DNA of 64,000 nt from an uncultured Planctomycetota bacterium (GCA_963845755.1 CAWJTV010000044.1:50936-114935), one strand, 5' to 3'. Positions 13,692-27,267 are shown, counted from the stretch's first letter. Notes: generated from the letters alone by a model not told the origin. Made by a program: numbers and translations.

Positions 13692-14760
13692 ATGAGCCTT
13701 CGTTTCCACTGGCGGATGATCCACGGCGGTGAGACCGGGGGCGTGCCGCGCGGCACCCAGAACCAGTCGGTCGAGATGAGCCAGCCCGATCTGGTAGCCC
13801 AGGCCGAGTTCTGCCGCCTGCGCGCTGGCGAGCGGAGTCGAGTCGCTCCTCCTGGACTTCGGCTTCGCCAAGCCGGATCCGATCCTCCTCGCCGCTGCCC
13901 TCGGCATGCTCGTCGATGACATCAAGTTTATCGTCGCGTACCGTTCCGGCCTGATGTCGCCGGTGACTTTCGTGCAGCAGCTCAACTCGCTTTCGTCCCT
14001 GATCCGTGGCCGTTTCTCCTTGAATATCGTCGCCGGCCACTCTCCTGACGAGCAGCGCTCATACGGCGACTTCCTCGATCACGACCGGCGCTACGAGCGA
14101 ACGGACGAGTTCCTCGCGGTCTGTCACGCGTTCTGGCGAGGCGAGAAGGACATCGACTTCGAGGGACGGCATTACCGGATCCAGAAGGGAAACCTGAATG
14201 CGCCATTCATCTCCGACGACCGGCGCCATCCGGAGATCTATATCGCGGGCAATTCCGAGCAGGCCGAGCGATTGTCAATGTCGCGGGGGGACTGCTGGAT
14301 GCGAATTGCCGATACGGCCGAGAATGTCGGCAAGGCGGCCGCCCCTGTGCTGGAGCAGGGGATCGACGTGGGGTTGCGGATGTCGGTCGTGGTCCGCCCC
14401 ACGCACGAGGAGGCCGTTGCCGCGGCGTACGACCTCGTCGGGGGCATGCAAACGGGTGACCCGGTGCGCCGGGTCGAGCAACACTTCATTCAGCGTAGCG
14501 ACTCCGTCTCGATGCATGACCTCTACCGCCGCGCCGAGCAGGACTGGCTCGGACCGGCATTGTGGGCCGGCGCCGTGCGCACCCACGGTACACCGGCGAT
14601 CGCGCTGGTCGGCTCGCCCGAGGAGGTCGCTACGGCGATCATCGAGTACAAGGCCGCAGGGGTTTCCCAGTTCATCTTATCGGGATGGCCGAAGCTCGAC
14701 AGCATGGAATTCTTTGGCATGCATGTCCTGCCGCTCGTTCGAAGCATGGAGCGAGCCTAG
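13692..14760 (+). CDS. LLM-class flavin-dependent monooxygenase (SsuD-like), paralog, one frameshift near 13825
   Basis: LRFHWRM, FIVAYRSG, GRFSLNIVAG, RYERTDEFL, PEIYIAGNS, ALVGSPEEVA, FILSGWP. Confidence 0.88.
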
Positions 14761-14935: not shown

Positions 14936-14978
14936 AAGCCACCTCTCGGACTCGAACCGAGGACCCCAGCTTTACGAA
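14936..14978 (-). repeat. att site: 43-bp duplicate of the tRNA-Thr 3' part
   Basis: AAGCCACCTCTCGGACTCGAACCGAGGACCCCAGCTTTACGAA is identical to 27194..27236. Confidence 0.95.
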
Positions 14979-15164
14979 CGAAGCTCTTGCAACCGCTTCT
15001 ATCGCCTTAACTTGATGTCGCTTCACAATTTACCGCCAACTCTCCCCGGTTTGCAAGTCCTGACGAACCGAAATGTGCAAGTGCCTGTGGTCACGGTAAT
15101 TGCGAAAAAACCTCTTACGAACGTAGTCGGATTGGCCGGTAGTTTTCGGTAGTCGCCGCGCACG

Positions 15165-15197
15165 AAAAAACCCCGCGCCAGCGTACCGGGCGGGGTT
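15165..15197 (-). terminator. Rho-independent terminator closing the element's minus-strand transcript
   Basis: Minus strand AACCCCGC-(loop)-GCGGGGTTTTTT. Confidence 0.7.
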
Positions 15198-15243
15198 AGC
15201 AGAACACTCAGATTCGCGGCCTTGCGTCGGGATCGGGGAAGAC

Positions 15244-15657
15244 TCAAGCCATGGCCGGAGAACGCAAGGGCGCGGCGCCACGTCGCTCTATCAATAGGGA
15301 TTTCATCCGCTCGGATCGGGCACTCCGCTCCACATCGGTGAGGACTGGACGGCGACGCTTCCGGGGTCTCAGGATTGCGGCGACGTCGCCGAGAAGGAAC
15401 GGCGCGAACAGGACCCGGGCCTCGGTGTCACCCCGTTGGTGCACGTGGACGCCGGGGACTGAGATCAGCTTGCCGACCATCTTCGGATTCCCGGTCCAGG
15501 CGGCCAGTGTGGTCGGTCCATGGACGGAGATGAACCCGTAACGGCATGGAATGCGATAGAGCCAGGGCCGAGACGACCGAGCCTGGTCGATCGTCGCGGT
15601 CTCATCGACGGTGATGCGGTATCCTCGCTCGGCAGCGAGGCGGTGAAGGTCGATCAT
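15244..15657 (-). CDS. Hypothetical protein of the element
   Basis: MIDLHRLAAERGYRIT...PWLYRIPCRYGFI...HQRGDTE; GAGAGG RBS upstream. Confidence 0.65.
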   Translation of the reverse strand: MIDLHRLAAERGYRITVDETATIDQARSSRPWLYRIPCRYGFISVHGPTTLAAWTGNPKMVGKLISVPGVHVHQRGDTEARVLFAPFLLGDVAAILRPRKRRRPVLTDVERSARSERMKSLLIERRGAAPLRSPAMA

Positions 15658-15713
15658 TCGGTCCTCTCGTAAATGTGGGGCTCCAGGCCCCGTGGAACGT
15701 AGCAAGGTCCCCT

Positions 15714-16013
15714 CTATCCAGCCGATGGCCAAGCGGGGCTCCCAGGGTCACCAGGGGCGTTGTACAGGCATCCCCGCGGGCGCGGGCGCGGTGGCTTGGG
15801 TCCCTTCAGGATCTCGAGGAACCGAACCAGCTCGGTTTTTGGAACGTGAAGGGTTCCGCGCTGGTTCGGATGCAGGTGCAACCCCAACGGCCGGGTTACG
15901 CGCTTGAGATCCTCTTGGGACCATCCGGCATCCCGCATGGCAGTTTCGATCTCGGCATACATGTGAATGTCTCCGTTCAGGGTCGAAGCAAGCGGGCATT
16001 TTGTTTGAGCCAC
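15714..16013 (-). CDS. Small hypothetical protein
   Basis: ORF in the tightly packed minus-strand run (MYAEIETAMRDAGWSQEDLKR...); start uncertain. Confidence 0.45.
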   Translation of the reverse strand: MAQTKCPLASTLNGDIHMYAEIETAMRDAGWSQEDLKRVTRPLGLHLHPNQRGTLHVPKTELVRFLEILKGPKPPRPRPRGCLYNAPGDPGSPAWPSAG

Positions 16014-16246
16014 CGCCGGGCCTGTGCCTTCTCGGTTTTCAGCCGCTTGGGAAGCTCGGCGTAAGTTCTCAGGAGTCGGAGGGCTGTCAGCGAATCAAGC
16101 CAAGGGCCTCCCTCGACGCGTGCAACCAGTTCAAGCTTCTCGAGCGGATCGCATGCCGGTCGCCTGCGATTCGCCGTGGCCAAACGATCGTAAAACCGGG
16201 CCGTGCGTGGCTGCTGTGCCATACGGTCTCCGTCTGTGGAGTCCAA
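15977..16246 (-). CDS. Small hypothetical protein
   Basis: Helical, protein-like ORF in the same run. Confidence 0.45.
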   Translation of the reverse strand: MDSTDGDRMAQQPRTARFYDRLATANRRRPACDPLEKLELVARVEGGPWLDSLTALRLLRTYAELPKRLKTEKAQARRWLKQNARLLRP

Positions 16247-16367
16247 TGAACCATCGTTTCAGTGGAGTTGGCGTTGGCGTCGGCGAGTTGGCGCCGAAGA
16301 CGCCGTTCGGGACCACGGTGTTCGGGACGAATTCGTTGAAGACGGCAGAAGCAGAGATCGCCATGGT

Positions 16368-16802
16368 TCATCTCCGATCCGGCTTGAAGCCGACTGTCTT
16401 GAGCAACCTCGCAACCATCTCGGCATCGGGTTCGGTCTCTGGGTCGCGTTCGATGCCGGCTCGGAGGTCGCGCGCGAAGTTGCGCATGGCCAGCGCGCTC
16501 GCTGGCGTGGCGTATGTCCATTTCTCGGGATGCCCCCTGTGGCGAGTCAGCTCGCCAGTCGTATTGCCGAATAGCTCGGCAACCACCAGCCAATAATGGG
16601 CCAGCGTGGCGCCGTGCTCGCCCCCTGGGTTGCCGAGTTGCCCCTCGATGTAGCGATCCAACTCGTCTTTCGGACCGTCGCGATCCGCTGGCTTCCACCC
16701 GCGGGGGATGAGCAGCCTCTCGGCAGTTTTAATCCTCGAACGAATCGACCTCTCCAGCCCCATGCTTCCCGCCTTTCTTCTGCGACTCGATGTAGGACTC
16801 AA
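16368..16802 (-). CDS. Hypothetical protein
   Basis: Start overlaps the end of the upstream ORF; protein-like composition. Confidence 0.55.
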   Translation of the reverse strand: MSPTSSRRRKAGSMGLERSIRSRIKTAERLLIPRGWKPADRDGPKDELDRYIEGQLGNPGGEHGATLAHYWLVVAELFGNTTGELTRHRGHPEKWTYATPASALAMRNFARDLRAGIERDPETEPDAEMVARLLKTVGFKPDRR

Positions 16803-17149
16803 TCAGCGCCGTGCGGCGTTCCAACTCGGACCACGCCGAGACGGCCACCAGTTGGCTGAGGATCTCGCGAAGGGCACCAAGCTTGACCTGGTCGCTGGTC
16901 GATGACTTCGCCAGGTTGGCGAGCCCCGCGATGGCCCAATTTCCAAGTCGCCGTCAGTCGGCCGATCATGGCGTCGGTCAACTCGCGGCGGTGTCTGGCA
17001 ACCTGCGCCTTGAACTCAGGGGTTGACGCCCATTGGTACGCAGTCCGCTCTGATACTTGATCCTTGTGCTTGGCCGCCCACTCGCGGATGCCCTGGCCGC
17101 CGGCGACCGCCAACGCCAGCTCGTCTAGCCTGGATTCCCATGGAGGCAA
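16799..17149 (-). CDS. HTH protein, terminase small-subunit-like (3' end probably frameshifted)
   Basis: LALAVAGGQGIREWA..VSERTAYQW...PEFKAQV..RRE: HTH followed by a helical tail, a pattern seen in small terminase-like proteins. Confidence 0.5.
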   Translation of the reverse strand: MPPWESRLDELALAVAGGQGIREWAAKHKDQVSERTAYQWASTPEFKAQVARHRRELTDAMIGRLTATWKLGHRGARQPGEVIDQRPGQAWCPSRDPQPTGGRLGVVRVGTPHGAD

Positions 17150-17598
17150 AAACGGGGTAGGCTACGACGCAATCAATAAACGAAACGAAATTCGTCGAAG
17201 TGGGGTTTCCCCTGGATTTCAAGGGGTTCTGGCCTGAAACGGCTCATCGAAACGCCACCCTCGATGTTAGGCGATCCGTAAACTGAAAAAAGAGCATCCA
17301 CGGCGTCAACCCAATGTATCCACTGTGGCGAATTCGACAGATTTATCCCAAAAACCCCTTATTTTCCAGGAGGAAGTGAGATTCGCTCGATGAACATATT
17401 ATCCACGATGATCAAGTTAACTTAGTGGGAGACCCACCTTTAACTCTTGGAAGAGCATAACCAGTTCCGAGGCGAAAAGCTGGGAATCGCGGGCTTTTTT
17501 CCAACTATGCGGCAACAAATGTTAGCCCAATCTGCCTCCATGGGAATCCAGGCTAGGAGTGCGGGATTCTTCTTCTTACGCATCGGAATGCTCCGTTC

Positions 17599-19144
17599 TT
17601 ACCATGGCACCGTTGGCTTCGGCGCGCTGGGCATCGGGGGTGGAACTCCGCTGCCCTTCTGTTTCTTGATCACTTCGGTTTGGTGCTCAATCCGTTGGAT
17701 CAACTCGCGGAGCAACTCGTCTGTAATTCCGCGACTCTGGCTCTTTGCGTTGTCAAAGGGCGTCGGACTCTCGCCCAATTCGGCGCGAGCGCGAGCGATC
17801 GCCTGGCGGTTGATCTGTTGGGTCTTCAGGTCATCCGAGAACGGCAAGATTCCCTTCGCGCGATCGAGCCAGGACGGGTGCTCGAAGGCGCCGCCTTTTA
17901 TCAGTTCGATCTCTGCAATCTGGCGACGTCGAGCCACCGAGTCATTTCGTGCGCCCATCCGGGCCTCTTCCGCGGCCTGAGCCGCATCGAGCTTGGCCTG
18001 GCGAGCCGTCTCGGTTCCACGGTTCTCTTCGATGGTTGTCTTGAGAACGTCAGGGGTCGTCTCATCGACGAGCTTCTTCCACTTCTCTAGCCCCCTGTCC
18101 CCCTGATCGACGAGCCCGCGCAGGGTGTTCTGGCCGATGGATTCCGGCGCAATCTCTTTCAGGACCTTATCGAGATCCTCACCGTTCGCCTTCCGGCCTT
18201 CGAGGTTCTTCACGAGTCCGCGGAGCCGTTGGTATGGCGTGGCGTTGTGCTCGACGCCGTATTCCTTGCCCTTGCCCTCGATATCGAGTTCACGAGCTAC
18301 CTGGATCGCGCGGAGAAGGTGGGTCCCTTCTTCCTCTGGCGCAATCTCCGGCATTCCGGCGAGGAGCGGGGCGGCTTCTTCGGCCGAAAACCCCTGAGCC
18401 TGGATTCGAGTCATCATCGGCAGAAGGTGCCCAACTTCGGCCGATGACGCTTCGAGGGTGGCAAAGACCTTGCCGGCCCTTGTCTTCATCTCGGTGGCGT
18501 TAGTCGGCCCTTTCTGCTGGGCCAGCAAGCCACCAGCGAAACCGGCCATTTCCTGCTGGGAAACGCCCTTCTGCTTGGCGTATTCCATAAGTGCCGAAGT
18601 GAACTCATTAGAGTCTTTCTGAGATAGTTTCGCGTTGGGTCCATCGCCGACGTACAACGATGCCTTGGAGAGATAGGCTTCGCTGAACTGCTTGGCTTCC
18701 TCTGGGGTGACGTTAGCTTTCTCGGCCCGATCGATCTCAGCCAGCGCAAAGGCGGTCGTGTTCTTCTTGCCGCTCAGGCTGGCGACGGCGTTCATGTCGG
18801 CGCGGAGCTTCTGGAAATGGTTCGCCATCTGTTCGACGCGAATGGAGGCTTCATTGAACTGTTCCACGATGGCGCCGGCGGTTGCCTTGACCGCCGCAAG
18901 CCCGATCTGTGGCGCGTATCAGGTTCGCGACTTCGTTACTGACGCCCCTGGCGGCGGAGGCAACGCCATCCATGCCGCGCTTGGCCGTGTCTGTCCCTCC
19001 CTTGCTCGCGCTGCCGAAGTCCTGCATGCCCTTCGCGCCCTTGTGCGTCGCCTGATCCAAGGCTCGGCCGAAGGCATCGACGTTCCTGAGCGCCGACTTG
19101 TTTTCGAGCACGAGGCTAATCTTGAGTTGCTTACTTCCGTCCAT
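17599..19144 (-). CDS. Short tail tape-measure-like protein (~515 aa; frameshift near 18910)
   Basis: Joins 18851..19144 and 17599..18867; N-terminal LKISLVLE, Ala/Gly/Lys-rich helical body; directly downstream of a G/GT frameshift pair. Confidence 0.7.
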
Positions 19145-19152
19145 TTATTGCC

Positions 19153-19740
19153 TCAAAATATGCCTTCGCAGGCATCATTTTCGATAGCCATCCGGATGCT
19201 GTCCACCCAGTTGGTTCGCGGTGGGGTTCTGTCGTTGGCTTCCAGGATATCGACGACATCCACTAGGTCTTCGAGGAGCATGAGCGCTGGCAGCGACCCG
19301 TTCGCCATGGCGGTAATCTTCCGCCAGCGCATCAGCGTTTTGGGCCGGTTTTCCCCCGGACCAAATTGGTTATCGACTCGACCATCTCTATTGACTGCTG
19401 GCTCTCATCGGGACTGCCGAACTCGAAAATGAACAGACTCTTCAAGTTCCTCGTCGCTTAGATCGTACTGACGTTCGAGCAGCATCGCCCCGAGGGTCAG
19501 GATACCGATGATAATGTCGTGGTTCGATGATGTATCGTTGGCGATCACATCGACCGCCTCATCGAACTCCGGCCCGAACGTCGTGTTTTATGTGAGACCG
19601 ACCGGGCGCCCATCGATGAACGTCGGATGGATCACGCCGACTGGCTTGGGGAAGTGCCATTCATTCCCGTCATGCAGTCGGATCGGATACGAGTGCTCGC
19701 TGAACGTAGGCAGTCTTCGGCTTTTCTCGTCGATTTGCAT
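19153..19740 (-). CDS. Tail assembly chaperone pair G/GT with programmed -1 frameshift; G copy has an in-frame TAA and one indel
   Basis: G: MQIDEKSRR...QYDLSDEELE..LF...RGKTGPKR*, stop at 19332; slippery C-CCA-AAA at 19344..19338; -1 frame open to TGA 19153, 8 bp before the tape-measure ATG. Confidence 0.72.
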
Positions 19741-19924
19741 TGGGGTTCTCGAAGAGGAATCGGTGTGCGTCCTGGACAGCCGGCCGGGTCCGCTCTGCGA
19801 ATCGGCACAGCTCGCTTGGACGGCTTCCGGATCTGCCTCGGTCGGTTGCTTGGGGTCCATGGGAGCCTTTCGGGGGGAGATGGGAGCGTCCGTGCTCCCG
19901 GGGCAAGCGTCACGTGCCCAGTTC

Positions 19925-20601
19925 TCAGGTGTAATGCTTGTAGAAATGATCGCGATTCGTGTGTATCAGGACCTTCGTCGGCTGGCCGGGGGCGAGCAAC
20001 GCCCACAGGGTGACCGTGTCGTCCTTGTTGCGCCGGCGATTGAGTCCCAGGGAGAAGCGATAGCGCTCGTCGGCCACCTGGGTATCAACGCTCGCCTGTG
20101 CATCCGCCACGCGGAACGCGTTGAACCTCGCCTTCAGCAGTCCAGACTTCTGCGCAGGGTTGCGGCATTCCGGGCGGCCTGGTCGGTATCCTGGCTGAAC
20201 TCGCCGAAGTCGCCGCTGGTCATCCTCGTGACCCAGGTGCGAACTTCGTCGGGGGCCATCATCAAGATCCGGTTCCCGCCCTCTTTCGAGAATGTGACGT
20301 CGCTCTCGGCAACCGTGAACAGGCTCTTGGCATCGCCGATCACCGCGGTTGCGTTGAAGGGCTTCACCGGGGCCGGGGCGCCATCGGGGGTCGCCATCAC
20401 AGCCGCGGCGTAATCGCCCTCGAGTTGCTTTACCAGTCGGTCGGCTGCCAGGTTGTATCCGGCATTCCGCAGGCTCGCGATTTCCATGTCGGCCGCAGTC
20501 GGGACCGAGGGAAGTGCGCCGATCTGCGAGGTCTCATGGAACGCGTCGGCGAACATTTGGGCCGGCGACTTGGGCTTGGAGAGTTGGGTTCCACTTGGCA
20601 A
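19925..20601 (-). CDS. Hypothetical protein (probably one gene, frameshift near 20140)
   Basis: ORFs 20134..20601 and 19925..20110 are collinear. Confidence 0.5.
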
Positions 20602-20659
20602 TTTAAGGCTCGCTTTCTAATGTTGAGATGTCAATCTTTGGGGGTTCAGCGGATGACGA

Positions 20660-21387
20660 TCACCTGCCGCTTGGCCGCTCCGCCGAGCCCGACGCTCTGG
20701 CCGAAGATGAACCCGGCTTCCTTGGACTGGCTTTGGATCGCCTGAAGGCGCTGGGCCATCTGATCCCAGGTCTCGGGCTTGACCTCGCGGGATGCGGCAG
20801 ACCAGCTCCCGGCTGTGGCTGCGATCCCAGGCCGCTCGAGCGGACCTGGGTGAGATGCTGGCCGCCGAGACCGATGGCACCTTGCTGGCCAACCCGTCGC
20901 TCATATTCGGCCGCGATGGCCTCCAAGCTCCCGGGCCGCGGCTGTGCCGGCGGCATGACGAACTGATCCCGGTTCACGGCCGTTTCGAGGCGAGCCCGAA
21001 TGACTTGCGGCAAGAGAACCGGATCAACCTGTTGTAGGTCGCTCCAAGCGGTCGCCAGCGTCTGCGCGGCGCCCGGTCGGAGGTTCGTGCCGGCCGCTTC
21101 GATCGCGGCTCTCAGGTTGATCTCCGACGTCTTCATCGGGGCCGGCTTGGGCGCCGAGGCTGGATCTTTCCAAAAGCCCGCGTAGTGCCCGCTTGACAGG
21201 TTGTTGACGACGAACTTGGAGACTTCTTCGGGCGTCTTGCCAGCGATCTGGCCAGCCCAGACGTGAGTCAAGGCCGGCGTAGCTCCATCAACCAGCGCGA
21301 CCTGATAGGCGCCAGCGCCGTTGTGATGGCCTCGGCGGGAGTCGGAGGAGTCGGGGCCGGGGTTTCAGGTGCGGTCTCGGTGCTCAA
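20660..21387 (-). CDS. Pro/Ala-rich protein with a duplicated helical unit, possible capsid-scaffold-like (frameshift near 21310; true 3' end uncertain)
   Basis: TTG start after GAAAGGA; units AEAITTALA..ALVDGATPALTHVWA and INLRAAIEAAGTNLRPGAAQTLATAWS. Confidence 0.4.
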
Positions 21388-21562
21388 GGATGGTCTTCCT
21401 TTCGGGAAGCGGTTGTGGTTCGAACTCGGATGGGTTGTGCAACAGGATCGACTCGACGGGGCAGTCCGTGGTCAAGCACTCGTAGCGCGCCGCAGAACCG
21501 CGGCGAGTCCGGAAGCGGGCCGCTTGGCCGCATCCGGGGCATTCGATCGATGGGGCGGTCAT
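21365..21562 (-). CDS. Small C4 zinc-finger protein, Ogr/Delta-like
   Basis: CPGCGQAARFRTRR...YECLTTDC (C-x2-C-x17-C-x4-C); ATGA overlap with the upstream gene. Confidence 0.55.
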   Translation of the reverse strand: MTAPSIECPGCGQAARFRTRRGSAARYECLTTDCPVESILLHNPSEFEPQPLPERKTILEHRDRT

Positions 21563-22137
21563 GCTTCCGTCTTGATCAGCCCCGCAACTTCGAGTTCGTT
21601 GAGTGCGGCGCGGACTTCAGAGACCTCCATCCCGCAGGCGCTGGCGATCCTGTCGGGGGGCGTCCAGGATTCGCCGCTGTAACGGTGGCAGTACCAACGG
21701 AGCTGAGAGACGACGATCTTCGCCGCGGCGCTGATCGAACTGTCCCGAAGGGTCTCGGCATACAGACGAACGTGGCGAGTGTCGGAAGGCTCGGGGGCTT
21801 GGATCTTCAAGGCGTTCTCCGTCAGGGTGAAAACGGGAGCGAACGCGGCAGGTCTCTCAAACCTGCGCGCTCCCCGCGTGGGGCTCTCACCCCACCATTT
21901 CGGATTCTGCGATGAGTAATTCGAGGGATATGGGGCCGGAATCGACCCCAGAATGGCGAAAACGGGGCCAAACTGTGAATAGAACCATATCATTCTACGC
22001 ACATGCCGCCATCTGCAAAACTCGAAGAGCTGGCGGACGATGCCGAGCCTGATTTCAAGGCATTCGGTGAATGCTAGGGTGCCCGGAAATATGCTAGTGG
22101 ACGCTGATGGTCGCGGATCTCCGTGATTCGGAGGCAT
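21559..22137 (-). CDS. Winged-helix (HTH_36-like) protein; true start probably downstream of 22137
   Basis: ISAAAKIVVSQL...SWTPPDRIASACGMEVSEVRAALNELEVAGLI. Confidence 0.6.
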   Translation of the reverse strand: MPPNHGDPRPSASTSIFPGTLAFTECLEIRLGIVRQLFEFCRWRHVRRMIWFYSQFGPVFAILGSIPAPYPSNYSSQNPKWWGESPTRGARRFERPAAFAPVFTLTENALKIQAPEPSDTRHVRLYAETLRDSSISAAAKIVVSQLRWYCHRYSGESWTPPDRIASACGMEVSEVRAALNELEVAGLIKTEA

Positions 22138-22204
22138 TTCCCGGCCCTCTGGCGCGTGGCGCGGCCGGTCAGGTCAAATCATACTGGCGATGGTCCGCGG
22201 AGGC

Positions 22205-23281
22205 TCAGACGGCCACGCTGGCGTGCGCTGATCGAAGGGAATCCGCAATAGGCTTGCACCATCGATTCAGTTCTTCTCGCACGACGGCAGGGAACCTAGT
22301 CCAGCGATCTGGCCACATCGCTTCTCTGGAATGCTGGATAGCCGCATCGACGTCGCCGTGGGTCGCGTAATGATCACCCAGGATCTTCTTGAGCCTAGCT
22401 TTCTCAGTCGTCTCGTCTAACCCAAACAGCTTGAGTTGGATCTTGATCTCTTGCTGGACGTACGGGCTGTCTGGGGGTGCGACATGGGGCCTTGGCCGGT
22501 TATAGTTGAATGCGTCCGGACCACTGGCTTGAACACGCTCCCATGGAGCAAGCTGAACCATACCTTCCCGCTTCCAGCGTTCCAGAATGCGGAACACATA
22601 TGATTGGTCGATCTTGCCGCAACCGACCGCTTCAGAGAAAGCCGCTCCGATGTTCGACGCTGGGAATCCAGAGTGTCCCATTCGGCGCACCCACTTATCC
22701 CAGGAGTCATCTCCCAAGACGCGCCGGATGTGCTCGGCAGCCCTTTCGTATTCCGGTCCAAGAACGTCTGTGGGAGGAGGTGGTCCCTCCTCCTCTCTTT
22801 TTCGTTCATCTGAGTTAAGACTTCTACTTTGGGTGACATGGGTGACACCCCCGGGGAGACACGGATGACACCCCCCGGGTGACTCTGGTGTCACCCTCCC
22901 ATCAGATGAGGGTGACTCTGGTGTCACCCTCTTTTGCCTCCCGGGAAACCGGAAGTGGTAACGATAGCCGGTCCGGTTTCGGGGGTCGTCTGGATCAGGC
23001 TTGGCGACCTCAGCCCTGACTATCAGCCCATGACACCCTTCGCCGAGTTTCTTGAGGGCGCGCTGAATCGTCCGCTCGTTCAGGCGAGTCCGTTCTTCGA
23101 TCTTCTTGATAGTCGTCCACGCAGAGGTTGCGCCGCGGGGGCAGTATCGCAGGAACGCTGCCAAGACGACGTATTCAGTAGGGGTGAGTTTTCCCTCGCT
23201 CACAAGGTCGAGAGCGATTTCCGGAATGGGGTCGAATTTGTAAGCGAGCTTGTTTTGCTCGGCATGCTCTTGATCTTTCAT
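22205..23281 (-). CDS. Phage-type replication initiator / replisome organizer
   Basis: N-terminal wHTH (LTPTEYVVL...TRLNERTIQRALKKL), repeat-encoded linker (RVTPESP x2), DnaD-like SYVFRILERWKREG. Confidence 0.75.
   Translation of the reverse strand: MKDQEHAEQNKLAYKFDPIPEIALDLVSEGKLTPTEYVVLAAFLRYCPRGATSAWTTIKKIEERTRLNERTIQRALKKLGEGCHGLIVRAEVAKPDPDDPRNRTGYRYHFRFPGRQKRVTPESPSSDGRVTPESPGGCHPCLPGGVTHVTQSRSLNSDERKREEEGPPPPTDVLGPEYERAAEHIRRVLGDDSWDKWVRRMGHSGFPASNIGAAFSEAVGCGKIDQSYVFRILERWKREGMVQLAPWERVQASGPDAFNYNRPRPHVAPPDSPYVQQEIKIQLKLFGLDETTEKARLKKILGDHYATHGDVDAAIQHSREAMWPDRWTRFPAVVREELNRWCKPIADSLRSAHASVAV
22831..22930. repeat. Iteron cluster, probable origin inside the rep gene
   Basis: Two exact copies of the palindromic GGGTGACTCTGGTGTCACCCT (22877..22897 and 22910..22930) plus GGGTGACA and GATGACAC half-sites. 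Confidence 0.75.
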
Positions 23282-23429
23282 GGCACTCGCGTATGATGTG
23301 AGAGAATGGCACTCGCGTTTGGCCCGGGATCGTCTGGCAACGATCGCCGGGCCTTTTGTCTTAAGGGGCTGGCCGTAGCCAGCGACCAGCCCCACCGGTC
23401 GGAGCGCCGGGACCGGGTGGTTCAGTGTT

Positions 23430-23636
23430 TCAACGGCCGGTGCCCTGAGTCGCGAAGTAGAATCTCTCGACCTCGCTCCGCGTGGCCATCCAGATCCCCC
23501 CGCGACGAAATGCCTTGATCTTGTCCCCGCAGACGCCGATGGTCCGCCATCGGTATCGCGTCGTCGAAGGGATGTCCGGCAGGAGCTCCGAAAGTCGCTC
23601 GAACCGCTCCGCGTCGCAATTCGCAGTGTTCGCCAT
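23430..23636 (-). CDS. DUF1580-like small DNA-binding protein
   Basis: PSTTRYRWRTIGVCGDKIKAFRRGGIWMATRSEVERF. Confidence 0.65.
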   Translation of the reverse strand: MANTANCDAERFERLSELLPDIPSTTRYRWRTIGVCGDKIKAFRRGGIWMATRSEVERFYFATQGTGR

Positions 23637-23748
23637 GTCTGTTGCGCCCTGTTGGTTCGGCCGATTCGAGTTGACCGGCGATGGGAAAAAAAACCGAATG
23701 ATCCCTCCATTGCTATATAGCAGAAGGCTCCTCATGTCGGCTCATGGC

Positions 23749-24723
23749 TTATGTGATCTCAAGCCGGCGCTTCAGGACGGCGATACATCGGGCCAAGGTC
23801 CGCTTGACGGTCGCTTCCGAGACGCCGAATTCCCAGGCGACCTTGACGTGGATCTTGCCGCCTGCGCCATCGAATCCGAAGCGAGCCCCGAGGATCTCCC
23901 AGTCCTCCTCGGTCATGTCGCCGTCCTGGATCGCCTCACGGATCGCTCGACCGATCTCGGGCGGAACGACATCGCTCAGCGAGGTTCGCGCGATAAGAGT
24001 GGGGCGACCACCAACCCGCTGTGCGGCGTTCAGGTGCTCGTCGGCGAGCAGGGCGGCCTTTGCGGCATTGATCGGTCGCCTGTTGTTCTTCTTCTCCCGG
24101 AACATCGCCAGGATCGCGTTGACGATATACTTTCGGGCCAGGTGCTCGAATGGGCCGACCGCAGGGTCGAAGACCGATGCAGCCCGGCAGAGGGCGTCGT
24201 AAGCTTCGGCTATCATGTCCTCGTCATCCAGTCCCCTTTCGCGGAATCGGCGACCCAGGGCGATGTTGTGGGCGAGCTCCAGGTGGGCGCCCACGAGGGC
24301 CTGTTGATCCCCGGTAAGCCTATGGAAACCACCCTCGAAACCCTCCTCGGTGGTCGTCTCGTCGCCCCACTGATCGTCGCCGGCCGGCTTCCAATCGGTC
24401 TGCTCTCTCCGCCACCGCCTCATGAGATCGGGCGATGCCAGCTCCTCATCCTTGTCGCGAGGCCACGTGGGATCGAATCGGTATCGCCGGGCCAAGGAAA
24501 TGAAGAGCATGCCGTCCGTGTCATCCTCTTCCGTCGCGCCGACGAGATGACGGACGAGCCAGTGTTCGCAGTCCCCGGGTCGGAATACGGTCCCCCCTTC
24601 GTCCAGCTCCCGTTGCAGTACGACGTGGTCTCGTTCCTCGGGCGGAAGAACGGGCGGTATCCGCTCGTATGCCTTGCCGGCGGTCGCCTCGCTGGGATAC
24701 CTCGCTCCGACGCACTTGCACAT
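23749..24723 (-). CDS. Sigma-70 family sigma factor with N-terminal extension
   Basis: Region 2 (LVGAHLELAHNIA...DEDMIAEAYDALCRAASVFDP...FEHLA) and region 4 (EILGARFG...VAWEFGVSEATV). Confidence 0.8.
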   Translation of the reverse strand: MCKCVGARYPSEATAGKAYERIPPVLPPEERDHVVLQRELDEGGTVFRPGDCEHWLVRHLVGATEEDDTDGMLFISLARRYRFDPTWPRDKDEELASPDLMRRWRREQTDWKPAGDDQWGDETTTEEGFEGGFHRLTGDQQALVGAHLELAHNIALGRRFRERGLDDEDMIAEAYDALCRAASVFDPAVGPFEHLARKYIVNAILAMFREKKNNRRPINAAKAALLADEHLNAAQRVGGRPTLIARTSLSDVVPPEIGRAIREAIQDGDMTEEDWEILGARFGFDGAGGKIHVKVAWEFGVSEATVKRTLARCIAVLKRRLEIT

Positions 24724-24827
24724 GTTAGCCTCTAGGAGATGACCGCCGCGCGCAGCCCGATCGAGCCTGCGCGGCGGGGTAGAAGGAAAGGGCGTTGCAT
24801 CACCATGAAGGGTCGTTGATGGTGACG

Positions 24828-25196
24828 CTACAGTCGAAGCGCGGAAATCTCGGCATCGACCCGCGCCAACTCGGCGCGCCGGGTCTTCGTCATGGGAGCC
24901 GGCTCGATTTCGGCCTCATCCTCGCCCAATGCGGCGGCCGTGAGGCGTCTCAGGAATCGCTCGATGGCTTCCTCGGTCGTTTTCCAGCCGCCGGGAAACC
25001 GGATCGCTTCGAGCCGGATGAACTGATTGGGGCCAACGCGGACTCCGTGGACAATCCAGCGCGTCAGTGTCGCGGGATGCACTGGCCTATCGCCCCGAGA
25101 TGGGCTGAAGAGCGCGGCCGCCTGAGAGAGATTGAGTTGTGCGCGCAAGTTTGACGTCTCCGTGCGTTGCGGTTTTTGACTCCTTCGCGTGATCAT
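24828..25196 (-). CDS. DUF1580 domain protein (excisionase-like)
   Basis: LNLSQAAALF...PVHPATLTRWIVHGV...IRLEAIRFPGGWKTTEEAIERF. Confidence 0.8.
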   Translation of the reverse strand: MITRRSQKPQRTETSNLRAQLNLSQAAALFSPSRGDRPVHPATLTRWIVHGVRVGPNQFIRLEAIRFPGGWKTTEEAIERFLRRLTAAALGEDEAEIEPAPMTKTRRAELARVDAEISALRL

Positions 25197-25361
25197 TAGC
25201 CACACTTCGCGGGTACTGTTCCTCTGTCCCCACGGGGAGTCTAACACCTTTAAAACGCAATGGAATAGTTGCATTCGCAGACCCGGTGTGTTCTCGAAAG
25301 ATTCCGTGTTTCCACTGACAAGAAACGAGTAAGGTTTGCGAGGATGTGATTGAAAAATGAG

Positions 25362-25383
25362 AAAACCCGGCCGGAGCCGGGTT
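25362..25383 (-). terminator. Rho-independent terminator
   Basis: Minus strand AACCCGGC-TCCG-GCCGGGTTTT followed by CTCATTTTT. Confidence 0.6.
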
Positions 25384-25413
25384 GGGTAGGAGGCGGGATC
25401 AAGATGTAGAATC

Positions 25414-25716
25414 CTACCTCTTGGCGGCCTTCTTGGAGCGGGGGGCCTTGGGCGCCGGAGCCTCGACGGGCCGCGGATTCTCTCGCTTGAAGACATCGGC
25501 GGAGGGCTCGATCTTGATCGCAAAATTAAGATCTACATGTGGGTCCATTCCAGGGAACTCGTTCAGGCTGAACTCGATTTGTCCCGAGTCGGTCCTGACA
25601 CATGCGACCATCCCGACGGCGCGGAACGTGTCCGTGAGTACCAGTTCAAGGGCATGCGTCATATCGGCGATGTTCGCGATCGAACCCGTGGCGAAAGGCG
25701 GAATCAGGGCCTTCAT
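25414..25716 (-). CDS. Hypothetical protein, monocistronic
   Basis: GAGGGAGG RBS, its own promoter and terminator, basic C-terminal tail. Confidence 0.65.
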   Translation of the reverse strand: MKALIPPFATGSIANIADMTHALELVLTDTFRAVGMVACVRTDSGQIEFSLNEFPGMDPHVDLNFAIKIEPSADVFKRENPRPVEAPAPKAPRSKKAAKR

Positions 25717-25775
25717 AGTGCTACCTCCCTCGGTGTGAGACTCGGCGTCAGGTCGAACATCGACCCGACAAAAGT

Positions 25776-25805
25776 AGTCTAGACCACGCGCCATATCTCT
25801 GTCAA
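25776..25805 (-). promoter_or_regulatory. Sigma-70-like promoter
   Basis: Minus strand TTGACA-N18-TAGACT with an AT-rich upstream tract. Confidence 0.6.
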
Positions 25806-25915
25806 GGGTGTAAATTTAAAAATTTTTTGATCACTTGATCGAATAATCGGTTGGCAAACTGATCAGTTTTTTTCCGTCTCCGGTTGGTTCTTCGGCTCGA
25901 CGTGCCTCCGGCAAA

Positions 25916-27074
25916 TCAGCCGATCTTTTGGGCAATCTCGACGGCGAGATTCAGGTTTCTCTCGGCGTAAACCTGGGTGACGTCGGCTTTCGAGTGACCA
26001 AGTAGGACTTGAGCCGCTTCAAGTCCGTGCTCCCGGCGAACGCGGGTGGCGTAGGCATGCCTGATTTGGTTCGGCCTGAAGACGGGGATTCCAGCCTTTC
26101 GGCATCCCGCTTCGATGGCGTGGGCGTAGGACTGACGCTCGTAGAAGAGACCGGGCTTCCGCTTCGGATTCCGACGTCGGCGGTTTCGCTGGGAAGGCTG
26201 GACTGGCGTCTTCCGGCGGGAGCGGATCTCGTCTCGAAATGCCGCCATGGACTCGGCTGGTGAAAAGATGGGGGCGTCGGGATCGGCCTTCAGGAGACCT
26301 TCCAGGAGTGCCCGTGCTCGCGGGCCAAGGGGGATGACACGATCCTTGTCGCGATGGAGATTCTTGTGCTGTCGCGGCGAGTAAATCCACGGATCAACGG
26401 TCCGGTCAATCTGACCAGTCGTGATCAGGCGAGCTTCTTGCGGTCGCATGCCCGTCAACCGTTGCAGCTCGATCATTCCTCGGATCGTCGGCGGGACATG
26501 CGGTAGGACAGCCTCGATATCGGCCTCGGGCACCGGCTTGACCTTTCTCGAGGGTTTCACGGCGTCACGGCCGACGCGGAGCCCGGCAACCGCCTCGATC
26601 CGTTGGAGCGAATCAGCCGGGAGCATCTCGTTCTCGACGCCCCAGGCCACCATACGGCGAATGACGCCCATCCTGTCACGGATCGTCGTGATGGATAGGC
26701 CGCTCTCGATCATCTTGAGCCGGATCGCCTTGAACGCCACGCTGCCGAACTTGGCCGCTGGCGTGTTGCCGTAGAGTTCCCTGGCTGCCTTCAGGGCCAG
26801 CCGATATTTGTCATCGACCTTCACTATGGTCGAATGCAAATGTGAGTGGTAGCCAATAACCAGCTCTTTGACCAGGAGTTCGTCGGAGCGCCTTCTCGCG
26901 ATCCGGCATGCGCCGCCCACGGGCCATCCACTCGGCGATGAGTCGATCGTATTCGGCCCGAGACTGGGGAGTGTTCCACTTTCCCAGGTAGAAATCTACG
27001 CCGTTCAGAGTGACCACGGCTTGGCCGCTGGCGCGGTGGCGTCGGTAGGACGGGATGAATGCTTGTTGCGACAT
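25916..27074 (-). CDS. Tyrosine recombinase/integrase (frameshift near 26915)
   Basis: N-terminal PSYRRHRASGQAVVTLNG; catalytic TGMRPQE, HKN, PNQIRH, LLGH, TQVYA. Confidence 0.92.
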
Positions 27075-27194
27075 TGCATGCCTCATTGCTTGAGATCCTT
27101 CGGTAGTTCTACCGTTTGGAGCATCAAGATAAGGCTATTGTAGCAGGTCAAGGTGCATGTCGCAAATCGCCAAGACGCTTCGAGTTGCGTCTTA

Positions 27195-27267
27195 AGCCAC
27201 CTCTCGGACTCGAACCGAGGACCCCAGCTTTACGAAAGCTGTGCTCTACCGACTGAGCTAAGGTGGC
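27195..27267 (-). tRNA. tRNA-Thr(CGT), CCA not encoded
   Basis: GCCACCT/AGGTGGC acceptor stem, AGCTCAGTCGGTAGAGC D-arm, CAGCT-TTCGTAA-AGCTG anticodon arm, GGTTCGAGTCC T-arm. Confidence 0.97.

Follow-up and report, generated by a model that had tools for sequence, protein, structure and literature searches.

The window analysed here, a stretch of 64,000 nucleotides from an uncultured Planctomycetota bacterium (GCA_963845755.1 CAWJTV010000044.1:50936-114935), contains an element of 12,301 bp (positions 14936 to 27236) that I tentatively read as a decaying, phage-derived integrative island of the satellite type, similar to the phage-inducible chromosomal islands (PICIs) and the Staphylococcus aureus pathogenicity islands (SaPIs). 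I favour this reading because the layout is PICI/SaPI-like. In the SaPI/PICI plan an integrase is joined by an AlpA/Xis-like regulator, a replication module, a late operon ending in terS (the gene of the small terminase, TerS) and accessory genes; the island presents an integrase, helix-turn-helix (HTH) regulators with a sigma factor, a replication initiator (Rep) with its origin, a late block with TerS as its last gene, accessory open reading frames (ORFs) and a terminator. The late block also encodes a tail assembly chaperone pair (G/GT) and a tape measure protein. An initial annotation had proposed a coherent satellite with no obvious scars; its att-bounded, replicative and phage-derived anatomy stands, but three morphogenesis genes are damaged in this copy, with a miniature inverted-repeat transposable element (MITE) of 432 bp in TerS, a TAA stop codon in G and a tape measure gene in two frames.

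The island is delimited by an exact direct repeat (43 of 43 nt, Table 1), a match which at a spacing of 12.3 kb is far beyond chance, and the intact attachment (att) repeats of the initial annotation are confirmed, as is its single-strand gene order, all plausible island genes being on the minus strand. Bounded by att sites and equipped with its own integrase (PF00589 E 8e-13; phrog_1 E 2e-26), the element falls within the approximately 7-20 kb expected of a satellite. An initiator and an origin of its own, which a satellite should likewise have, are represented by Rep and four iterons inside its gene, which would act together in replication; in lambda O, too, the origin iterons lie inside the initiator gene. 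In the following, G000 denotes the window's own genome, other G numbers genomes of the host's family, C numbers contigs and L numbers loci. In the sister species G001, the locus L027 (C32, 1428-2411) has a tRNA-Thr with an identical 42-nt core that adjoins a related integrase. This integrase is 74% identical to that of the island, the match ending at residue 179, and no other island gene is found there. The tRNA-Thr(CGT) gene appears to be a recurrent integration site. The flanks of the empty site are on separate contigs (left versus right) in both G001 and G012, and the site is not rebuildable from them.

Family scans with Pfam and PHROG took in 21 minus-strand ORFs at a threshold of E<=0.01, and PHROG matches were obtained for four of the 21, the other ORFs remaining blank. 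In a wider scan of 108 open stretches (minimum length 45 aa in the three minus-strand frames and 100 aa in those of the plus strand), four had any match, namely the integrase, the sigma factor, Rep and the HTH protein. None of the 108 stretches of this six-frame scan matched a PHROG for capsid, portal, large terminase (TerL), tube or lysis, while p203 and the gene that the fragments p155 and p61 make up (about 230 aa, immediately preceding G) are left without a family. No recognisable capsid, portal, TerL or lysis gene is seen, in agreement with the initial annotation, but the absence of a tail tube is not established, as p155/p61 occupies the exact position of the major tail (tube) gene in siphoviruses. 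No homologue of p155 was found among 1.84 billion representatives, an AlphaFold2 model of p155 by itself was unusable (predicted local distance difference test, pLDDT, 44.8), and the Atlas gave no usable match. The island is probably unable to make particles alone.

In the tail module, p90, p59 and the stretch between them form one tail-assembly-chaperone gene pair. The heptamer CCCAAAA is found at the same place in eight of eleven loci, the window included, where the G frame ends just past the heptamer and a T domain in the -1 frame follows; the T extension is kept in nine of the eleven loci. The G/GT chaperones named in the initial annotation thus have both a slippery heptamer near the end of G (19338-19344) and a conserved -1-frame extension, which together are the G/GT signature of long-tailed phages. 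Homologues of G/GT adjoin homologues of the tape measure fragment p422 on C11, in G035, G008, G029, G032, G120, G082 and G085, and on two metagenome contigs. The comparison of chaperone and tape measure with the prophages of the same genome, as had been suggested, finds matching parts in a cluster on C11. The G frame of the island is not intact, owing to the in-frame TAA (19588-19590) and a frame change near 19425.

The tape measure gene lies directly 3' of G/GT with its -1 frameshift. It is not a single intact frame, being split near 18912. However, p97 aligns with the first approximately 75 residues of the homologues and the frame of p422 then continues gaplessly, so that the two are one gene. 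No Pfam or PHROG match at E<=0.01 was found for it, and among six members of the family only faint ones were seen (PF20155 at E 0.041 in two of six, phrog_4211 at E 0.093 in one of six). A model predicted by AlphaFold2 from 23 homologues (pLDDT 91.2, predicted template modelling score 0.83) gave 121 Foldseek matches at E<=0.001 in BFVD. The best 50 of these comprise 18 tape measure proteins, 10 minor tail proteins, two uncharacterised and 20 unnamed proteins, and thus 28 of the 30 named ones are tail proteins. Against the PDB, Foldseek found nothing at E<=0.001 with the same model, and the profile of alignment A2 had no match among PDB sequences. I accept the gene as a tape measure because the predicted fold and the synteny support it, though the sequence families do not; the missing family match, which was to count against the tape measure of the initial annotation, is overturned by the fold. 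The protein had also been called short, which it is not for its family, with about 514 aa versus 471-683 aa in 21 of 22 aligned homologues (the 22nd was not tallied).

The last gene of the late block owes its TerS-like label, already given initially, to homologues that lie upstream of TerL. Its piece p116 is 42% identical to a protein of G085 and 38% identical to one of G083, both directly preceding TerL (phrog_2 E 1e-20 for the TerL of G083). The TerS family phrog_2538 is matched by the G085 homologue at E 6.5e-6 and by the G083 homologue at E 0.003; the window piece itself reaches E 0.039. This TerS-like family is present in 37 of 121 host-family genomes, with up to 24 copies per genome (G008), and among 30 sampled loci TerL is found at most 1.5 kb downstream in 17 and not in the other 13. 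Ten of the loci that lack TerL (in the range L077-L116) were read over 10 kb to either side, and no other recognisable phage structural gene was seen there. In the island, the stop codon of the tape measure is 13 nt from the GGAG and ATG of TerS, which is a tight gene-to-gene junction.

The MITE interrupts TerS after about codon 10, and the ATG at 17583, with GGAG upstream, is in phase with the remainder once the insertion is discounted. The genome has 19 other copies (20 in total; e.g. C11:979776-980221, C40:58190-58624 and C41:400633-401069), and 17 of 19 full-length copies are flanked by CTA...TAG; a CTAG target with duplication of TA is that of IS630/Tc1-type elements. The island copy differs by about 6.6% from the other copies, which are nearly identical among themselves. 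The gene that would redirect packaging is thus split and not in working order; the terminal repeat of the MITE offers an alternative in-frame ATG.

Alignment to homologues places frame changes in the integrase (about 26890-26905), G (about 19425), the tape measure (about 18912) and TerS (16948), in addition to the split between p155 and p61. Essential genes of the same genome are broken as well: two frameshifts are present in rpoC, one in rpoB, one in secA, two in gyrA and none in ileS, making six in about 16.6 kb (about 0.36/kb), with no in-frame stops. From this rate, about 4.4 breaks are predicted in 12.3 kb. An otherwise identical short-read metagenome contig has one base fewer at exactly 16948, by which the TerS frameshift is gone. 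In a second assembly, the proteins of a nearly identical island on a 42,816-nt contig have indels at other places, with p162 shifted, the integrase break moved, and p155 and p61 fused in one frame. The frame shift in the integrase is probably an assembly error, because the second assembly breaks this gene at another position; a single frame is seen both in the homologue from G001 and in the paralogues of C7 and C17. A reading of the five frameshifts (integrase, G, tape measure, TerS and p155/p61) as evidence of decay was rejected, as essential genes are likewise broken and other assemblies differ. Because the assembly has frequent indel errors, any frameshift in this genome needs independent reads.

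Three lesions outlast this test for assembly error, namely the MITE in TerS, the TAA in G and the break in the tape measure, while for another four or five frameshifts an assembly error is the most likely cause. The second assembly repeats, without a single difference, the G fragment of 50 residues that ends at the TAA (P0048), and has the tape measure broken at the identical site (P0058). I count the TAA as evidence of damage, given the zero in-frame stops in about 16.6 kb of essential genes. Four soil-metagenome runs from one study contained 5-7% of the sampled words; their reads on the island fall on the MITE (other copies) and a few pieces of 150-240 nt, with the TAA, the tape measure break and the MITE junctions uncovered.

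Table 1. Features of the island in the window, and the frame-broken essential genes of the same genome (positions are those of the window unless a contig is given).
Feature	Position	Strand	Basis
attL, left copy of the 43-nt direct repeat	14936..14978	.	exact repeat
hairpin with U6, terminator-like operon end, 3' of the last ORF	15165..15197	-	stable hairpin
four accessory ORFs (p144, p89, p99, p162), no assigned function	15244..16802	-	no Pfam, PHROG or PADLOC match
TerS-like gene; start 17583 cut off from the rest by the MITE, frame change at 16948	16732..17583	-	homologues
MITE, 432 bp, terminal inverted repeats of about 24 nt, inserted at CTAG with TA duplicated	17125..17556	.	other genome copies
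tape measure protein (about 514 aa), in two pieces, p97 and p422, with the split near 18912	17599..19144	-	alignment A1, AlphaFold2, Foldseek
T extension of the GT chaperone (-1 frame)	19153..19332	-	47% identity to C11 copy
tail assembly chaperone G; in-frame TAA 19588-19590, frame change near 19425	19332..19740	-	homologues in 8 loci
slippery heptamer C CCA AAA, -1 frameshift into T frame	19338..19344	-	conserved position
single gene (about 230 aa) formed by p155 and p61, immediately preceding G	19925..20601	-	fused in second assembly (P0061)
p203, no assigned function; frame possibly switching near 20870	20660..21271	-	frame plot
Cys-rich 65-aa ORF, zinc-ribbon-like	21365..21562	-	direct sequence reading
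second winged-HTH protein	21559..22137	-	HTH_36, DprA_WH, phrog_270
replication initiator, lambda O/DnaD-like N-terminal winged HTH, origin inside gene	22205..23275	-	phrog_270 E 1e-6, HTH_36
four iterons, 22-23 nt, putative origin	22831..22932	.	repeat families D1, D3; inside Rep ORF
101-aa small ORF, initially the second DUF1580 gene	23430..23735	-	no family match at E<=0.01
sigma-70-family factor	23749..24723	-	Sigma70_r2, r4, phrog_351
HTH protein, weak DUF1580 match at C-terminal end	24828..25523	-	PF07618 E 1.6e-4
126-aa small ORF, no assigned function	25414..25794	-	no family match
tyrosine integrase, two frames: N-terminal domain 26811-27086, core 25916-26920	25916..27086	-	PF00589, phrog_1
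attR, right repeat copy, inside 3' part of tRNA-Thr	27194..27236	.	exact repeat and tRNA call
tRNA-Thr(CGT), integration target	27195..27267	-	ARAGORN
rpoC, frame-broken	C34:567489-571586		
rpoB, frame-broken	C34:79366-83015		
gyrA, frame-broken	C11:955025-957483		
secA, frame-broken	C25:256019-259175		

The integrase, the sigma factor (Sigma70_r2 at 24.2 bits with a cut-off of 24; phrog_351 E 1e-9), Rep with its iterons and the second HTH protein were all recovered by family matches and, for the origin, by the four internal repeats, as initially annotated, and the zinc-finger ORF of that annotation corresponds to the Cys-rich ORF, read directly from the sequence. Of two proposed DUF1580 genes, the first has a weak match (PF07618, 21.6 bits, under the cut-off of 24.4) and the second none; the first would have an Xis/AlpA-like role. 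A terminator-like site (25364-25383) lies 3' of the 126-aa ORF. The protein p203, taken initially for scaffold-like, has no family match and no homologue at all among 5.8 billion proteins. Among the accessory ORFs, p162 has seven other homologues, all 'hypothetical'. The terminator reported at the end of the operon is present as a stable hairpin with U6 (about 15165-15197), while a generic terminator scan performed no better than chance (15 versus 12.2 +/- 3.7 in shuffles). PADLOC, applied to 14 of the 21 proteins of the island (the pieces of integrase, chaperone, tape measure and TerS left out), found no match; the lone stray match, of Rep to mad1 (E 0.007), had no stretch passing by itself.

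The same genome holds a paralogous element (C40:35591-45184, L029) with an integrase (37-48% identity), a DUF1580 HTH protein homologous to that of the island, a Cys-rich small ORF that is a weak paralogue, and a paralogue of Rep (39% identity over 126 aa), but without tail or packaging genes. To the left of the island, the N-terminal part of a host gene (13692-14760, LLM-type oxidoreductase-like, 284 aa) may be out of frame, and its start is overlapped by a 75-aa ORF in another frame, possibly as a result of an assembly indel.

The tape measure family matched 15 of 121 host-family genomes and, in a sample of 401 genomes from the phylum, the window's own genome alone; judged by these searches, it does not extend beyond the host's own family. 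Large structural clusters make up five of the contexts (C11, G035, G008, G029 and the G032/G120 type); in these a 150-aa protein, a tube-like protein and a 101-aa protein, in this order, precede G, T and the tape measure, after which come five further tail genes. Within the window's own genome, the C11 cluster (C11:142691-167236, L003 and L004) has portal, scaffold, an SU10-type capsid gene, immunoglobulin-like proteins and distal tail genes besides the tube-like protein, G/GT and tape measure, with a TerS-TerL pair (C11:107940-110705) about 30 kb upstream, and as a candidate helper from the same genome this prophage-like cluster is the nearest. The neighbours in the G082 locus include a portal, a fragment of TerL and, immediately before G, a sigma factor. 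In the G085 locus a tRNA-Ala, an integrase, a D5 primase, an Xis-like HTH protein, TerS and TerL are found, but no att repeat of at least 14 nt was detected, and the G083 locus has TerS, TerL and a tape measure. The loci L064/L065 (G085:C5) and L068 (G083:C302) are compact, consisting of an Xis-like HTH gene, TerS, TerL, a few unassigned genes and a tape measure with no recognisable portal or capsid, and may be capsid-less elements.

None of these loci shares Rep, the sigma factor, p203, p155/p61 or the accessory genes with the island, and the gene set, whose recurrence elsewhere was to be expected from the initial annotation, was found in none of 120 other family genomes. A genome-contig scan with alignment A2 found nothing, a metagenome scan gave two short contigs only, and no match to p422 or TerS was obtained by tblastn in 50,697 phage records. 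A conserved family of such small elements was thus not found; the architecture alone recurs, once, in G063. The G063 island (L116, G063:C29, 7750-14793) lies at a tRNA-Leu and comprises an intact related integrase, a DUF1580-like HTH gene, three unassigned genes and a TerS-like gene that has no TerL beside it. Two further genes are topoisomerase-like (phrog_6247) and, in the other case, for a helicase resembling those of type I restriction. Judged from its predicted genes, this is a PICI-like layout with defence (restriction-like) cargo.

Several observations weigh against the reading as a decaying satellite. The nearest tape measures (54-66% identity, G082 and G085) are in larger phage-like loci with TerL, and a metagenome contig with a tape measure at 50% identity carries the usual gene that follows the tape measure; to judge by their gene content, such relatives would fit descent from a full phage. 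The initial annotation had named closest homologues in full prophages as an outcome that would refute it, and this is, at least in part, what is seen (G082, G085, G083 and the structural clusters). In the 120 other family genomes p155 has no credible match and Rep only weak winged-HTH matches, none of them credible; p203 is without homologue anywhere searched, and viral-contig scans with p422 and with p155 found nothing. The p155/p61 protein may be a tube protein, and the island would then be a plain slice of a tail operon. Both assemblies may come from the same reads, and the shared break in the tape measure may then be a systematic error. TerS, finally, might still be made from the ATG that the MITE brings.

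The first of these points lead to the rival that survives best, although I consider it doubtful, namely that the element was never a satellite and is what deletion left of a complete temperate siphovirus, with the head, motor, distal-tail and lysis genes lost and the rest drifting. All eight readable contexts of G and tape measure are larger phage-like loci (five full structural clusters and three with TerL or portal), the gene set does not recur, the lesions in G and TerS are real, as is probably that in the tape measure, and a gene sits at the tube position. Like a defective prophage, the island is phage-derived, integrated at a tRNA, incomplete, and marked by pseudogenes and the insertion of a transposable element. 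However, random deletion from an order TerS-TerL...tape measure fits poorly, because of the gene order, the tight junction between tape measure and TerS and the two exact att sites. TerS follows the tape measure, the reverse of the order in G085 and G083, and instead of truncated genes at the junctions, the start of G and the end of the tape measure are complete, and remnants of tube or distal-tail genes are not seen at E<=1.

That the island is an active, helper-dependent satellite, as was initially thought, which still redirects packaging and tail length while its breaks are assembly errors or tolerated, seems unlikely. The error rate in essential genes, the short-read contig at position 16948, the second assembly (with p155/p61 unsplit and the integrase break moved), the in-frame ATG from the MITE, the exact att sites and the tape measures carried by published satellites all speak for it. 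Against it, both assemblies show the TAA in G, which is a substitution, and the tape measure break, the MITE parts TerS from its ribosome-binding site and operon, and no relatives of the island were found. A non-viral, plasmid-like integrative island with captured tail genes (e.g. as a tail-assembly decoy), or a mis-join of the assembly, is very improbable: the Rep-with-iterons module is plasmid-like, the accessory genes have no assigned function, and interference of mobile elements with tail assembly is described (PMC11364771), but there is no PADLOC match among the 14 proteins scanned, the co-oriented block contains a phage-type sigma factor and TerS, and a mis-join is argued against because the second assembly holds the same genes.

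If the island is a decaying satellite-type element, the following would have been its mode of life, with a satellite rather than a prophage as ancestor and with dependence on a helper. The tyrosine integrase would have placed it in the tRNA-Thr(CGT) gene, the small HTH proteins and the private sigma factor would control it, and the lambda-O-like initiator would fire the four-iteron origin inside its own gene. The late block would yield the protein of about 230 aa, G and, via a -1 slip on CCCAAAA, GT, followed by the tape measure and lastly the small terminase. In the working state, TerS would load island DNA into helper heads, while the chaperone and the tape measure would set the tail that is made from helper parts. 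In the present copy, G stops after 50 codons, the tape measure is probably split and TerS is cut by the MITE. From these lesions it follows that the island is most likely no longer transmissible as a satellite, though its excision and replication may still be possible.

A satellite with its own tape measure is not a new concept, because it has been published for PLE11, a PICI-like element (PLE) of Vibrio cholerae, with putative tmp genes also in PLE-like elements and capsid-forming PICIs (cf-PICIs) (Nature 2026, PMC12987554), and for the EPIPs of Mycolicibacterium aichiense, satellites of about 11 kb with a tape measure that are proposed to alter the length of hijacked tails (bioRxiv, December 2025, PMC12822802). 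The statement of the initial annotation that something similar had been reported for Vibrio PLEs is borne out by PLE11. PLE11 resembles the island in being a small, integrated satellite, in lacking capsid genes and in encoding a tape measure of its own, the idea being that it makes its own tails from helper parts. The PLEs differ in that they exploit a lytic myovirus and possess RepA among other hallmark genes, the likeness being one of description only, whereas in the island Rep is lambda-O-like, a sigma factor and TerS are present, and the tape measure and chaperone are broken. With the cf-PICIs, PICIs and SaPIs the island shares the integrase, a putative AlpA/Xis-like regulator, a replication module, a late operon ending in terS, accessory genes and an att-bounded size of 12 kb. 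However, cf-PICIs have capsid, portal and connector genes, none of which is recognisable here, and the likeness is one of layout. EPIPs, with a size of about 11 kb, are alike in having TerS and a tape measure, besides an integrase and an HTH protein, but their integrase is a serine integrase, they have scaffold, capsid, adaptor and stopper genes, and they were isolated as particles, whereas in the island the integrase is of the tyrosine type, G/GT is present and no capsid gene is seen, and it is known from sequence alone.

No paper in the library searched names both planctomycetes and phage satellites. If alive, the island would be the first phage satellite reported from the Planctomycetota, and another satellite that brings its own tail ruler. 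A bolder proposal, which I hold to be unlikely at present, is that this island and that of G063 could belong to a PICI-like satellite lineage of large-genome planctomycetes, which would hijack packaging with TerS only; the present island would in addition use a private G/GT and tape measure to re-measure tails made from a resident prophage such as the C11 cluster, and this copy would be alive or recently dead. As it stands, the island is a single damaged copy in an error-prone assembly, and its main value is that of a pointer, to a planctomycete family of tape measures and chaperones with a conserved CCCAAAA slip site, and to an abundant TerS-like family which at 13 of 30 sampled loci is present without TerL.

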